Of a stretch of 64,000 bases of DNA, positions 40,293 to 48,609 are shown piece after piece. Origin of the DNA: Candidatus Omnitrophota bacterium. Lineage in GTDB: Bacteria; Omnitrophota; Gorgyraeia; JACQQV01. Below the pieces are notes generated by a model. It made no database searches, was not told the DNA's origin, and saw only the letters and a list, made by a program, of their open reading frames with translations. Positions within the stretch are counted from its first letter, which is position 1; every line of letters starts with the position of its first letter. Location of the stretch: the NCBI GenBank assembly GCA_016206785.1, contig JACQQV010000010.1, positions 302-64,301 of the forward strand, read 5' to 3'. The position numbers and the translations under genes were made by a program.

Positions 40293-40355
40293 CGTGAACC
40301 CCGTTAGACCTCTCTGGTCTGACGGGATAATGTTGGAGGTCTAACGGGGTGAACA
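40293..40355. repeat. REP-like palindrome family 1, copy 1 (GTGAACCCCGTTAGACCTC ... GAGGTCTAACGGGGTGAAC).
   Basis: It is a 19-bp perfect inverted repeat separated by 25 nt, lying between comF and lptF. The right arm overlaps the lptF GTG start. Confidence 0.7.
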
Positions 40356-41449
40356 TCCTCCAAAACTATATCCTAAAAGAAATCATCGTGGGATTCCTCC
40401 TCGCCATCCTCCTCTTTACCTTCGTGCTCCTCGTCGGGAATCTGGTAAAACTGGTGGAACTGGTGATGACGAAAGGGGTGAATTTCTTTTCTGTCTTGAA
40501 ACTTTTCGGATACCTCATGCCCTCTCTCTTGAATTTCACCATCCCGATGTCCCTTCTCACGAGCACGGTGCTTGTCTTCGGGCGTCTCTCAGCGGATCGG
40601 GAGATTACGGCGATGCGGGCAAGCGGCATCCGACTTTTCAAGCTTTCCTTTCCTGTCATCGTCTTTGGACTCCTCCTCAGTCTTGGATCGCTCGCCTTGA
40701 GCGACCGGCTTCTTCCAAAAACCCATTTTGCTTATCGGAAACTTCTCAAGGAAATTGGAGTGAAAAACCCGACGAGTATTCTTGAGGCAGGAACCTTTAT
40801 CGAAGGATTTGGAAACTACATTCTCTTCATCTACGAGATTGATGATGGGCTTCTTAAAAATATCCGGATCTATCAACCCCAAGAAAACCGCCCTCCCCGA
40901 ACGATCATCGCGAGGAGTGGGCGGATCCTCACTGCTCCAGGAAGCGATGTGATCACGATTAAACTCACGGATGGAACGAGTGACGAACCGAATCCCCAGC
41001 GTCCGGAGACGTTTTATAAACTCAATTTTAGGACCTATCTCATCAATCTCAAACTTTCAAGCGCTTTCAAAGAAAAGACCTTTTCCAAAAAACCAAAAGA
41101 CATGACGATCGGGGAGCTGAGGCGCCAGATCAAAAAATATCGAAAAGAGAGAATTGACACCGCTCCCCTCAGGACGGAAATCCATAAAAAACTTTCCATG
41201 GCGTTTTCAAGCCTTGTCTTTGTCCTGATCGGTCTACCCCTTTCCATCCGCACGGGCCGGAAGGAGTTATCGATCAACTTTGCGATCAGCATGGGGGTCG
41301 CTTTCATCTACTGGATTTTTCTCGCCTTGGGAGAAGCGCTCAGTTTGCGCGGCCTCCTCACCCCTTTCTTCAATATGTGGCTCCCGAATATCCTCCTCGC
41401 TACCGTCGGCATCCTGCTCATGGGTCATGCCTTGGAAGGACGCTCATGA
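40349..41449 (+). CDS. lptF: LPS export ABC permease of the LptF/LptG (YjgP/YjgQ) family.
   Basis: It shows YjgP/YjgQ topology and a GTG start. Its stop overlaps the next start (ATGA). Confidence 0.7.
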   Translation: MNILQNYILKEIIVGFLLAILLFTFVLLVGNLVKLVELVMTKGVNFFSVLKLFGYLMPSLLNFTIPMSLLTSTVLVFGRLSADREITAMRASGIRLFKLSFPVIVFGLLLSLGSLALSDRLLPKTHFAYRKLLKEIGVKNPTSILEAGTFIEGFGNYILFIYEIDDGLLKNIRIYQPQENRPPRTIIARSGRILTAPGSDVITIKLTDGTSDEPNPQRPETFYKLNFRTYLINLKLSSAFKEKTFSKKPKDMTIGELRRQIKKYRKERIDTAPLRTEIHKKLSMAFSSLVFVLIGLPLSIRTGRKELSINFAISMGVAFIYWIFLALGEALSLRGLLTPFFNMWLPNILLATVGILLMGHALEGRS

Positions 41450-42537
41450 AGATCCTCGACCGATACCTGGGGAAGGCCTTTTTCGTCCCCTTCATGATTT
41501 GCATTCTCACCTTTAGTTCGGTGGCGATTGTGATAGATCTCTTCAACCGATTGGATGAGATCTTAAAACTCCATACGCCTCTCACAACTTTGTTGGTCTT
41601 TTACCTCCATTTCATTCCCTTTACCTTTGTCCAAACAAGTCCCATTGCGGTTCTGGTGGCCTGCCTTTACAGCGTCGGCCTTTTAAACAAACACCATGAG
41701 TTGACGGCGATGCGGGCAAGCGGCCTGAGTCTTGCGCGTATCCTTTCTCCCTTACTTTTTCTAGGACTTTTGGTCGGGGCGGTCTCTTTCGTCGTGAATG
41801 AAACGGTCGTGCCATCGGCCATGGTCAAACTCACCGCGATCAAGGAAGAAAAGTTGGAAGTGGGAAAGACCTCAAAAGGCAAAGTGCTAAAGAATGTGGC
41901 GCTCTTTGCGGAGGAAGGAGATCTCTACTATGCCACCACCTTTGAGCCTAAAAAGAAACTTCTGCGAGATCTTGTCATCCTCCGCGACAACGAACAACAT
42001 ATTCCGATCCTCAAGATCCAGGCGCGGGAGGCCCGTTGGGCAGAGGGAAGCTGGATTCTTTCTCGAGGAAGTAAATACCGGCTTGACCTCCACGGAAAGA
42101 TCATCGGGGAACCGATCCTCTTTATCAAGGAAAGGTTTCCTTCTTCGGCGAAACCGGAGGAATTCCTCAAGGCAAGACTTCGGACGGAGATGATGAACAC
42201 CCGGGAACTCCGGGCGTACCTGAAGAAACTCAAGGGAAAGGCGGCTCCCTCCGTGATCCGCCGGATCATGGTGGAACTTCACCAAAAGATTGCTTTTCCT
42301 TTCGTGAACGTCGTCACGATCCTCATCGGATTTCCTTTTGTCTTTCGGGAAAAGAGGGGAACGGGAATCTTAAGAGGCGTCGGCATCAGCGGCGTGTTAA
42401 GTTTTACCTTCTATGCCAGTTTTATCATCACAAGCAATCTGGGAACTCAGGGAATCCTGCTCCCTTGGCTTTCGGTCTGGATTACCCATTTTGTGTTCGG
42501 AGCGGCAGGGATTTTACTTCTGTGGCAGGCCCGTTAA
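41446..42537 (+). CDS. lptG: LPS export ABC permease of the LptF/LptG family.
   Basis: The start is at MKILDRYLGKAFF, and it is YjgP/YjgQ family. Confidence 0.7.
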   Translation: MKILDRYLGKAFFVPFMICILTFSSVAIVIDLFNRLDEILKLHTPLTTLLVFYLHFIPFTFVQTSPIAVLVACLYSVGLLNKHHELTAMRASGLSLARILSPLLFLGLLVGAVSFVVNETVVPSAMVKLTAIKEEKLEVGKTSKGKVLKNVALFAEEGDLYYATTFEPKKKLLRDLVILRDNEQHIPILKIQAREARWAEGSWILSRGSKYRLDLHGKIIGEPILFIKERFPSSAKPEEFLKARLRTEMMNTRELRAYLKKLKGKAAPSVIRRIMVELHQKIAFPFVNVVTILIGFPFVFREKRGTGILRGVGISGVLSFTFYASFIITSNLGTQGILLPWLSVWITHFVFGAAGILLLWQAR

Positions 42538-46814: not shown

Positions 46815-48559
46815 GGCTCTCCCATAAAAATTTTCTTTGTCATTTTTTCGAGATAGGCTTCAACTTCTCTTCCCGTCGAAAGTGAAAGCGCTTCTTCTGC
46901 AATTTTCTTCGCTTCACCCATCTTGACCGATCGGATGACCCTCTTGATCTCCGGAAGGTTTACCGCGCTTGTGGAAAAACCGTCCAGTCCCAATCCGAGA
47001 AGGATGAGCGCCAGTCGCGGATCACCAGCCATTTCCCCGCACATCCCGACCCATAAATGATGTTTGTGGGCTGTATCAATGATATGCTTCACAAGACGGA
47101 GAACCGCCGGGTGCGCAGGTTCGTACAGATAAGCAATTTTTTCATTCGATCGATCGACGGCGAGGGCATACTGGATGAGATCATTGGTCCCGATGCTGAA
47201 AAAATGGACCTCTTTGGCAAGGAGATCGCAGGTCAAGGCCGCAGAGGGGATTTCGATCATGGCACCCACTTCGATCTTTTCATCGAATGGAATTTTCTCC
47301 CGACGCAACTCCTCCTTCACCTCCCGGAAGAGGGCGTTGGCTTGTCTCAACTCTTCCACCCCTGAAATCATCGGGTACATCACCTTCATTTTTCCCTTGG
47401 CACTCGCTCGCAGGATCGCCCGCAGTTGTACTTTGAAGATATCGGGACGGGCCAGGCAAAACCGGATGGCGCGCCACCCCAAAAAGGGATTCATTTCATT
47501 CGGAATGTCCAATTGAGAGAGAAATTTATCTCCTCCGAGGTCCAACGTTCTCACAATGACGGAATGAGGCTGGACTTCCTGCACCACCTTGTGGTACGAC
47601 TCGAAATGTTCCTCTTCGGTGGGAAGATCTACCCGATTCATGTAAAAATACTCGGTCCGGTAAAGCCCGATTCCCTCTGCGCCATGGGCAATGACCGAAG
47701 GGATTTCATGAGGAAATTCGATATTGGCCGCAAGGGTCACCCGGTGCCCGTCCAAGGTTTCCGCGGGGAGATCCTTCAGTTTGAGAAGACTCCGGCCGAA
47801 TTCCTCAAGACGCTTTTGTTCTTCTGTATACCGACGGATCGTCTCTTCCGTCGGATTGATAATCACAAGGCCCTGCGCACCGTCGATAATGAGGAGATCG
47901 TCCTTGGAGACCCTCTGGGTCACCTCTTCGAGACCGACCACGGCCGGAATCTCAAGCGACTTCGCCATAATCGCCGTGTGAGAGGTGCGCCCCCCGATAT
48001 CCGTGACAAACCCCTTCACGTTCTCTCGATGCATGAGGGCTGTGTCTGAGGGGGAAAGGTCGTAGGCCACCACAATCACAGGTTCCTTGAGATCCTGAAG
48101 GGTCTGCCGCTGTTTTCCCAGGAGGGTCCGTAGGACCCGTTTCCCCACGTCCTCGATATCGGAAGTCCGCTCCCGGATGTATTCGTCTTCAATCTTCGAA
48201 AAGGCATGGATGTATCTTTTCAAGACATCGAGGAAGATATAATCGACGACGACTTTCTCCGCCTTCACGCGTGTGATGACTTCCTCGATCAGGGTGCGAT
48301 CCTCGATGACCAAAAGGTGCGCACTAAAGATTTCTCCTTGCTCCTTCCCCATCTCTTCGAGGATTTTCTTCTGAATACGGAGAATTTCGGCACGCGTCTG
48401 GATCAGGGCATCTTCAAAACGGGCGATCTCACCCGCCACTTCTTCCTCGGCTATCTCCTGCCTCTGAACGCTAAATCCCTCGCTATCGAGAAAAAAAGGG
48501 CGTCCGATGGTCACGCCGGCTGAAGCGGGTATGCCTTTGAGGGTTTCTTCTGGGTTCAC
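46811..48559 (-). CDS. ptsI: Phosphoenolpyruvate-protein phosphotransferase (PTS enzyme I).
   Basis: It contains the EI N-terminal, phospho-His and PEP-utilising domains, including GGRTSHTAIMA. Confidence 0.9.
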   Translation of the reverse strand: MNPEETLKGIPASAGVTIGRPFFLDSEGFSVQRQEIAEEEVAGEIARFEDALIQTRAEILRIQKKILEEMGKEQGEIFSAHLLVIEDRTLIEEVITRVKAEKVVVDYIFLDVLKRYIHAFSKIEDEYIRERTSDIEDVGKRVLRTLLGKQRQTLQDLKEPVIVVAYDLSPSDTALMHRENVKGFVTDIGGRTSHTAIMAKSLEIPAVVGLEEVTQRVSKDDLLIIDGAQGLVIINPTEETIRRYTEEQKRLEEFGRSLLKLKDLPAETLDGHRVTLAANIEFPHEIPSVIAHGAEGIGLYRTEYFYMNRVDLPTEEEHFESYHKVVQEVQPHSVIVRTLDLGGDKFLSQLDIPNEMNPFLGWRAIRFCLARPDIFKVQLRAILRASAKGKMKVMYPMISGVEELRQANALFREVKEELRREKIPFDEKIEVGAMIEIPSAALTCDLLAKEVHFFSIGTNDLIQYALAVDRSNEKIAYLYEPAHPAVLRLVKHIIDTAHKHHLWVGMCGEMAGDPRLALILLGLGLDGFSTSAVNLPEIKRVIRSVKMGEAKKIAEEALSLSTGREVEAYLEKMTKKIFMGEP

Positions 48560-48609
48560 CCCGTTAGACCTCCTGGTTCCCCGTTAGAAATTCGAAAGGT
48601 CTAACGGGG
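48556..48609. repeat. REP-like palindrome family 1, copy 3, with one and a half units.
   Basis: TTCACCCCGTTAGACCTC is followed by the hairpin CCCCGTTAGA-aattcgaaag-GTCTAACGGGG, between the ptsI start and the ptsH stop. Confidence 0.7.

Follow-up and report, generated by a model that had tools for sequence, protein, structure and literature searches.

MIRU are presented, in the summary of Supply et al. (1997) relayed by PMC12548453, as short, apparently mobile repeats that insert at start codons within operons, are oriented with the genes and carry an internal open reading frame (ORF) coupled to the downstream gene by a 4-nt stop/start overlap. We analysed a 64,000-nt stretch of DNA from Candidatus Omnitrophota bacterium (assembly GCA_016206785.1, contig JACQQV010000010.1, positions 302 to 64,301 of the forward strand; this whole stretch is called the window), in which a palindromic element of about 59 nt occurs at three intercistronic junctions. 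We interpret the three sites as copies of a non-autonomous mobile element family of Omnitrophota that is similar to miniature inverted-repeat transposable elements (MITEs) and homes to start codons. The probability of this interpretation is roughly 0.72, judging from the anatomy of the sequences, the target duplication, empty sites, the position at true N-termini and the spread across species. The element resembles MIRU in its insertion at start codons, its co-orientation with the genes and an internal ORF that overlaps the downstream start, where GTGA arises when the element length is 1 mod 3; by analogy with MIRU, such an overlap would minimise damage to expression. MIRUs consist of direct repeats of a minisatellite-like kind and lack terminal inverted arms. 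Start-codon insertion with ORF coupling has a precedent in MIRU, but by the published description the present elements differ from it in being palindromes with terminal inverted repeats (arms of 16 nt), in the 4-nt duplication of a target such as TGAA, in their own Shine-Dalgarno sequence (SD) and start-completing base, by which SD and start are rebuilt and predicted to be hidden, in a decoy arm, in their spread throughout another phylum and in the existence of a second family.

Correia/NEMIS of Neisseria, RUP of the pneumococcus and ERIC are short, non-autonomous MITEs that are present in many copies, are co-transcribed and form hairpins in mRNA (PMC3184786). The elements of the window share with bacterial MITEs the terminal inverted repeats, a target duplication of fixed length (4 nt here), the empty sites and a short, non-coding, multi-copy nature, whereas Correia/NEMIS, RUP and ERIC use TA or other targets at variable intergenic positions. 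None of the three is known to fuse to a start codon or to rebuild an SD and a start. Repeats that carry a ribosome-binding site (RBS) and an ATG are known, namely Neisseria REP2 and the Borrelia IR (PMC3184786). REP2 differs in having no terminal inverted repeats and also has a promoter. We know of no case in which REP2 inserts into an existing start codon with duplication. Rickettsia palindromic elements (RPE), in the outline given of them in PMC3184786, are selfish palindromes tolerated inside expressed genes by frame preservation. They lie within coding sequences and are translated as peptide inserts, in contrast to the present elements, which are read through in frame in only 9 of the 93 distinct copies studied here (length 2 mod 3).

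Repetitive extragenic palindromes (REPs), including BIME and the REPIN-RAYT systems, are similar in being short, GC-rich intercistronic palindromes with many copies per genome and maintained hairpin complementarity. REPs lack a target duplication, are bordered by a conserved GTAG-type tetranucleotide, are linked to a RAYT gene and usually lie after stop codons, in either orientation. The present elements are instead flanked by T-R-A-R direct repeats that covary with the target, and 70 of 93 copies are fused to start codons, all oriented alike. Literature searches on the sequence, on Omnitrophota/Omnitrophica repeats and on MITEs bearing start codons or RBSs yielded no description of this family.

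Three copies of the element in the window

We designated the terminal 12-mer CCCCGTTAGACC as C12 and its reverse complement GGTCTAACGGGG as G12. Six exact occurrences were detected in the window, all in three inverted pairs (40299-40310/40338-40349, 45683-45694/45722-45733 and 48559-48570/48598-48609). The first-pass annotation of this DNA had named inverted repeats at these three places, and its coordinates were correct within 1-3 nt. When up to two mismatches were allowed, CCCCGTTAGACC gave 10 matches in the window against 4.35 expected, a number that none of 100 shuffles reached; the 20-mer GGAGGTCTAACGGGGTGAAC with up to three mismatches gave 4 matches against 0.01 expected. The three-site repeat is real and far above chance. 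The copies and their parts are as follows.

40295..40353, plus strand: element copy 1, flanked by TGAA on either side, between the comF-like gene and lptF; left arm 40299-40314, middle (decoy) arm 40316-40327, SD GGAGG 40335-40339, right arm 40338-40349
45679..45737, minus strand: element copy 2, between the PGI/PMI and nucleotidyltransferase genes; left TGAA 45737..45734, middle arm 45715..45705, SD 45697..45693, GTG start 45683..45681
48555..48613, minus strand: element copy 3, between ptsH and ptsI; left TGAG 48613..48610, middle arm 48590..48579, SD 48573..48569, GTG start 48559..48557

Beyond the earlier description, conservation extends past the arms to the whole length of about 59 nt (copy 1 shares 92% identity over 59 nt with copy 2 in reverse complement), and each site contains an additional arm copy, the third, which is degenerate. 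When all are read in the sense of transcription and aligned, the three copies follow the common pattern TGA[A/G]-CCCCGTTAGACCT..T...GGAGGTCTAACGGGGTGAA, outside which the flanking sequences are unrelated, and their orientation relative to the flanking genes is identical. The layout is (R)TGAR, then CCCCGTTAGACC-TC..., a degenerate copy of the right arm, GGA-GGTCTAACGGGG and TGAA. The left arm of the window copies is CCCCGTTAGACCTC, and the internal degenerate copy of the right arm is GGTCTGACGGGA, GTCTGATGGGG or TTCTAACGGGG. The GGA preceding the right arm creates GGAGG, located 9 nt upstream of GTG in each window copy. Both flanks are TGAA except for the left flank of copy 3, which is TGAG.

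Evidence for insertion

We analysed the flanks and positions of 93 distinct element copies. The 4-nt flanks were identical on both sides in 77 of them; the pairs were TGAA/TGAA (51 copies), TGAG/TGAG (9), TAAA/TAAA (9) and TGGA/TGGA (3), together with TGAT, TGGG, CGAG and TAAG pairs. Among the copies whose left flank was not TGAA, the right flank matched in 23 of 35, compared with a permutation mean of 2.2 and a maximum of 8 in 20,000 permutations (p <= 5e-5). Because near-identical elements carry different flank pairs (TGAA/TGAA in locus L024, TGAG/TGAG in L039), the flanks derive from the target and not from the element lineage. Judged from these sequences, the flanking 4-nt direct repeat is a target-site duplication.

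Clean empty sites were found for all three window junctions in relatives with the same gene order, whose PtsI or PGI is 79-86% identical. At the PGI to nucleotidyltransferase junction, L076 reads cgacgATGAAGTCCCTC where the window has gcgATGAA[element]TGAAGTCCCTT; the two differ by a clean indel of 55 nt, seen also in comparison with L025, and the junction is empty in L156, L158 and L160. The same junction is filled by a 79-nt version in L161, and by a variant with T...A arms in L078, whose PGI is only 47% identical. At the comF to lptF junction, L076 reads cacgtGTGAACATTC against cacGTGAA[element]TGAACATCC in the window, and L156 is empty too, while copies are present in L025 and L062, which belong to other species. 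Between ptsH and ptsI, no element is present in L156, L158, L160 or L161; one such empty junction reads ACATGAGACCGGAAGAG. L161 thus has copies at the PGI to nucleotidyltransferase and comF to lptF junctions and none at ptsH to ptsI. The presence of the element is patchy, and the filled genomes are not sisters in a tree built from one protein (PtsI). This calls either for hot spots of insertion at these starts or for frequent precise loss.

In tandem arrays, neighbouring copies share one TGAA, as expected if the right end of the element (SD and GTGAA) re-creates the target.

Directly upstream of the PGI to nucleotidyltransferase element of L161, a duplication of 12-15 nt (TTGGCAAGACAATAG / TTGGCGAGACCATGAA) was observed at 3700-3730, and the PGI stop codon is shifted there. 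This duplication may be a scar left by insertion or repair.

Position at start codons

In the window, the last G of the element and the TG of the right flank form a GTG at which lptF, the nucleotidyltransferase gene and ptsI begin. The first-pass annotation had reported overlap with a start codon near 40355 only; the overlap is real, but it is not confined to that site, as all three copies supply the SD and GTG of the downstream gene, which makes the link to translation much stronger than it had suggested. The gene names that it had proposed are supported by Pfam matches to ComF-like, LptF, PGI/PMI-type SIS, NTP_transferase, HPr and PtsI.

39553..40290, plus strand: comF-like gene (double zinc ribbon and phosphoribosyltransferase, by Pfam), stop TAA 40288-40290
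40294..40344, plus strand: 16-codon mini-ORF, which begins at the original GTG start (preceded by its native SD, AAGAGG), crosses into the element and ends at TAA in the right arm
40349..41449, plus strand: lptF, GTG 40349-40351, Pfam LptF_LptG domain from residue 7
44934..45683, minus strand: nucleotidyltransferase gene, starting at the element GTG, Pfam NTP_transferase from residue 2
45735..46814, minus strand: PGI/PMI-type SIS-domain gene (by Pfam), with its TGA stop inside the left flank of copy 2
46811..48559, minus strand: ptsI (MNPEETLKGIPAS...), starting at the element GTG, Pfam PEP-utilisers_N from residue 8
48611..48892, minus strand: ptsH (HPr, by Pfam), with its stop codon inside the left flank of copy 3

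The N-terminus of the nucleotidyltransferase aligns with the ATG of orthologues at empty sites, and PtsI homologues of 582-584 residues begin at the same aligned position as the window protein. The left TGA of copies 2 and 3 doubles as the stop codon of the upstream gene.

The same position was found across the 93 copies. The GTG at the end of the element opens an ORF of at least 100 codons in 70 copies, and the other two frames close at once; such an ORF follows 28% of other RTGAA sites and 14% of random positions. Most exceptions are upstream members of tandem arrays or belong to a TAAA-flanked subfamily. By a rough count, start-codon RTGAR represents at most about 17% of the TGAR sites that would tolerate insertion without breaking a gene. 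The enrichment at starts, together with the single orientation, requires a targeting mechanism or strong selection.

In 63 copies A, and in 28 copies G, precedes the left flank, with an ordinary purine-rich SD ahead; when an extended target motif was sought around the left flank, nothing was conserved beyond this SD and RTGAR. Because it is preceded by A or G and an ordinary SD, the left flank is taken as the original initiation region. Its TGA also terminates a long upstream ORF in 30 of the 70 gene-start copies, corresponding to a former ATGA overlap.

Twenty downstream genes that we checked have unrelated housekeeping functions; they include feoB, uvrA, gpsA, truB, an ABC exporter, degT, wecB, cstA, ribBA, ligA, a heptosyltransferase gene, purD, a gltD-like gene, gatA, rpoC, a tolC-like gene and pyrC. 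The N-terminal Pfam domains of feoB, gpsA, purD, cstA, ribBA and rpoC begin within residues 1-11 from the GTG. Since these domains start close to the element GTG, the elements are compatible with the expression of essential genes.

RNA folding and a possible translational mechanism

The first-pass annotation had suggested RNA folding of the elements. In the predicted fold the outer arms pair over 16 bp in a strong hairpin (-30 to -37 kcal/mol; z -3.9 to -4.6), in which SD and GTG are buried. An internal arm that matches the right arm at 9 or more of 12 positions was detected in 41 of 93 elements, compared with 0.9% of shuffled interiors, and an internal copy of the left arm in none. Pairing of the left arm with the internal arm was predicted at -22.6, -22.2 and -16.1 kcal/mol in the window copies and leaves SD and GTG single-stranded. 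Changes in the middle arm relative to a perfect arm mostly keep wobble pairs (A>G and C>T, 48 at 4 sites; G>A and T>C, 29 at 8 sites), and in 40 of 54 cases the sense strand gives a more stable decoy hairpin than the antisense strand does (Wilcoxon p = 4.6e-6). The wobble and strand biases would fit selection that acts either on the sense RNA or on a single strand of the DNA; a strand-specific mutation bias is an alternative.

The reading frame from the old start ends in several ways. At lengths of 0 mod 3, upstream reading stops at a TAA that lies within the right arm and 5 nt ahead of GTG (23 copies); the three copies of the window belong here, with 16-codon mini-ORFs. At 1 mod 3 the stop is the TGA that overlaps GTG as GTGA (17 copies) or an earlier interior stop (18), and at 2 mod 3 the frame is read into the gene (the 9 copies noted above) or meets an interior stop (5). 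A conserved leader peptide was considered and rejected, as element lengths occupy all three residues mod 3.

On our reading, the element inserts at T-R-A-R, usually the TGAA within a start region RTGAA, always in one orientation, and the 4 nt are duplicated. The upstream copy of the flank retains the old SD and ATG, plus the stop of the upstream gene at ATGA overlaps, and the downstream copy with the last G of the element rebuilds the start as GTG, or as ATG in the T...A arm variants. The arm brings a consensus SD, (A)GGAGGT, 9 nt upstream of the new start. Because both SD and start codon are rebuilt, the gene keeps its exact N-terminus.

From the predicted structures we infer the following translational mechanism and role of the decoy arm. 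In mRNA, the 16-bp outer-arm hairpin would hide the new SD and start. By one route, ribosomes that have translated the upstream gene, or the mini-ORF beginning at the old ATG, may melt the hairpin, ending at or near the new start or reading through; this would be translational coupling or reinitiation at the element GTG, and coupling by RNA unfolding or by reinitiation has been described (PMC12548453). By the other route, the left arm may pair first with the internal decoy arm during transcription, thereby freeing SD and GTG; the decoy hairpin should form first, because the internal arm is transcribed before the right arm.

Such a mobile element would be able to colonise very compact genomes by landing on start codons with a replacement RBS, a start-completing base and stops in the other two frames, and because it carries these parts, essential genes and overlapping operon junctions can host it. 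We also consider, tentatively and with more doubt than belief, a wider proposal: that these start-codon-homing cassettes, with a three-arm design of anti-SD, wobble-weakened decoy and SD plus start, are more than tolerated selfish DNA and work as a transferable switch of translation; that dozens of housekeeping genes, among them rpoC, ligA and ptsI, are under obligate coupling or kinetic control; that mobilisation perhaps proceeds by a novel mechanism recognising initiation regions; and that at least two unrelated families in Omnitrophota converged on the design or inherited it.

Distribution of the family and a second family

We scanned species-representative genomes with C12-N15-45-G12, requiring exact 12-mer arms, and detected exact-arm copies in 73 loci of 18 assemblies. 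The first-pass annotation had proposed a dispersed family of short palindromes in short intercistronic gaps, with local duplication as the alternative; the copies in the window and in these assemblies bear out the former and do not support the latter. The carriers are nearly all labelled Candidatus Omnitrophota or Omnitrophica, with a few Planctomycetia, Nitrospiraceae and UBP18, and their sample names are varied (Black Sea 750 m, 400-m 'DeepCast' water, 'Guay', 'Mohns' and 'CG07_land' subsurface). Assembly JADHWH01 contains about 60 exact-arm copies. These hairpins, which are predicted to sequester SD and start and have a decoy arm, would provide a test set within one genome for models of coupling and co-transcriptional folding. 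A scan of viral contigs for the element gave 0 matches.

Element lengths are commonly 41-69 nt and reach about 120 nt (41-122 nt overall). The terminal inverted arms, CCCCGTTAGACC(TC)...(GGA)GGTCTAACGGGG, are perfect over 12-16 nt in all copies. In copies preceding genes, the terminal pair is C...G, giving GTG, or T...A, giving ATG, and the T...A variant occurs in both families described here. Arm variants keep their complementarity (T...A, G...C and TCCCGTTACATC/GATGTAACGGGA).

A search independent of arm sequence, for T-R-R-N flanks with at least 11 complementary terminal bases, identified a second family with unrelated arms, CCCAGCCCTTCC or CCCCGCCCCTCC ... GGAGGGGCGGGG. It too is flanked by TGAA, contains a degenerate right-arm copy in its interior and has the GTG or ATG of a long ORF at its right end. 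Since the second family has the same design with unrelated arms, the architecture is conserved beyond one sequence family. Its copies are as follows.

L026, minus strand, 5679-5753 (reverse-strand coordinates): second-family copy
L036, 3411-3464: second-family copy
L046, 4874-4946: second-family copy
L057, 5742-5828: second-family copy
L061, minus strand, 1081-1138 (reverse-strand coordinates): second-family copy
L067, 690-742: second-family copy
L084, 3786-3907: second-family copy
L087, 7081-7194: second-family copy
L094, 1505-1652: second-family copy

Three further observations concern individual loci. The TAAA-flanked subfamily lies inside an intergenic repeat of 150-220 nt rich in GTGTAA (L017 166-214, L028 2195-2310, L060, L065 and L069; assembly VGKK01). 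In L048, rpoC of JADHWH01 stands between two elements (3190-3274 and 7399-7465), one at the start codon and a longer one of 85 nt just beyond the stop. Metagenomic contigs end in or beside an element in L003, L056, L060 and L161; the repeats probably break Omnitrophota assemblies. Gene callers will misplace starts and small ORFs around the elements in metagenome-assembled genomes of Omnitrophota.

Objections and alternative explanations

Several results weigh against a MITE-like family that homes to start codons. No arm pair on the kilobase scale encloses a transposase in about 1.6 Mb of loci, which are partial genomes, and the window; the kilobase-scale arm pairs that exist are separate elements flanking housekeeping genes. 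The 50 proteins of the window gave no Pfam match to a transposase, integrase, HUH or RAYT protein, and an all-versus-all comparison of the locus proteins yielded orthologues only, with no multi-copy transposase. An apparent preference for initiation regions makes the mobilising enzyme worth finding. As the searches used exact 12-mers, the conservation of the arms partly reflects how the copies were found. Some flank pairs are unequal, such as TGAG/TGAA at window copy 3, and the TAAA-flanked subfamily lies away from start codons. The strict single orientation and the matched arm variants also fit a single-strand, hairpin-dependent mechanism. As for translation, the coupling and decoy model draws on sequence and predicted folding, and a hairpin of -30 kcal/mol over the SD of an essential gene would sit poorly with strong expression of that gene if coupling were inefficient.

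The alternative that survives best, although we consider it unlikely, is that the elements are REP/REPIN sequences or PATE-like derivatives of IS200/IS605, in which a single-copy HUH (Y1) transposase or RAYT recognises a hairpin in single-stranded DNA and inserts 3' of TGAA on one strand. The fixed orientation of the copies, arm variants that always stay complementary and the bias of pairing to one strand would all be explained in this way, as would the same arms in many species, which are expected of a vertically inherited host enzyme; the lack of an insertion sequence with the same ends in the roughly 1.6 Mb of loci and the window also agrees with it. A right end that supplies the tetranucleotide, however, does not predict the covariation of the fourth flank base on both sides even between near-identical elements (L024 and L039). 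Each copy forms one long hairpin in place of separate left-end and right-end hairpins, and the window contains no HUH match. No IS200-like protein was found by phmmer among 2,633 ORFs in about 580 kb of related loci, a weak test that used an IS200 TnpA query. The first-pass annotation had called the repeats REP-like; the covarying 4-nt flanking repeats, the empty sites, the absence of a GTAG-like signature and the fusion to start codons in fixed orientation speak against that label and against 'extragenic' in its usual sense. Its suggestion of an associated RAYT gene likewise found no counterpart among the window's proteins or, within the limits of that weak test, in the related loci.

Still less likely, in our estimate, is a host cis-regulatory RNA motif placed by selection (an SD-sequestering regulon, or a site for an RNA-binding protein or RNase III), or a former mobile element that is now fully domesticated. 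Invariant arms around interiors that differ by about 20-40%, the rarity of decayed copies, a three-arm architecture kept in two sequence-unrelated families, the wobble-biased substitutions on the sense strand and the location at translation starts are what such a motif would show, but the requirement for exact arms inflates the apparent conservation. Covarying target duplications, tandem arrays and patchy orthologous junctions indicate ongoing gain and loss instead, and the downstream genes lack a common function. Rfam gave no family for the elements, either at the gathering score in the whole window or at E <= 1 in 40000-49000; the best match was a chance miRNA hairpin with 21.7 bits against a gathering score of 91.

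Neisseria DNA uptake 12-mers often occur in inverted pairs, and the present 12-mer is conserved across species with a comF-like gene adjoining copy 1, while GTTAGAC and GTCTAAC fit by eye the GTTRRRY and RYYYAAC cores of the attC consensus; nevertheless, DNA uptake sequences, integron attC sites and intrinsic terminators are very improbable, because the 12-mer is almost never single or intragenic, because the attC core order is reversed (GTTAGAC...GTCTAAC against R''(RYYYAAC)...R'(GTTRRRY)) in syntenic housekeeping operons with no integrase among the window proteins, and because a terminator scan found no T-run after any of the three hairpins, which are followed by TGAA and coding sequence, contrary to the terminator role suggested earlier.

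Other features of the window

A c-di-GMP-I-GGC riboswitch was detected at 35275-35351 on the minus strand (63.2 bits; gathering score 59), just upstream of a giant ORF of 1,944 residues (29388-35222, minus strand) with two PTS-HPr domains and AprA-MT2-like methyltransferase domains. This protein is apparently under c-di-GMP control. A radical-SAM gene at 610-2658 on the plus strand has a LAGLIDADG match, and its counterpart in L156 (20396 onwards) is annotated Intein_splicing; the enzyme probably contains an intein. A cluster of four tRNA genes occupies 51501-52032 on the minus strand, with a 25-nt near-palindrome alongside at 51435-51487. A 70-nt inverted repeat (9519-9588 and 29443-29512) has arms that are 77% complementary and located 20 kb apart.

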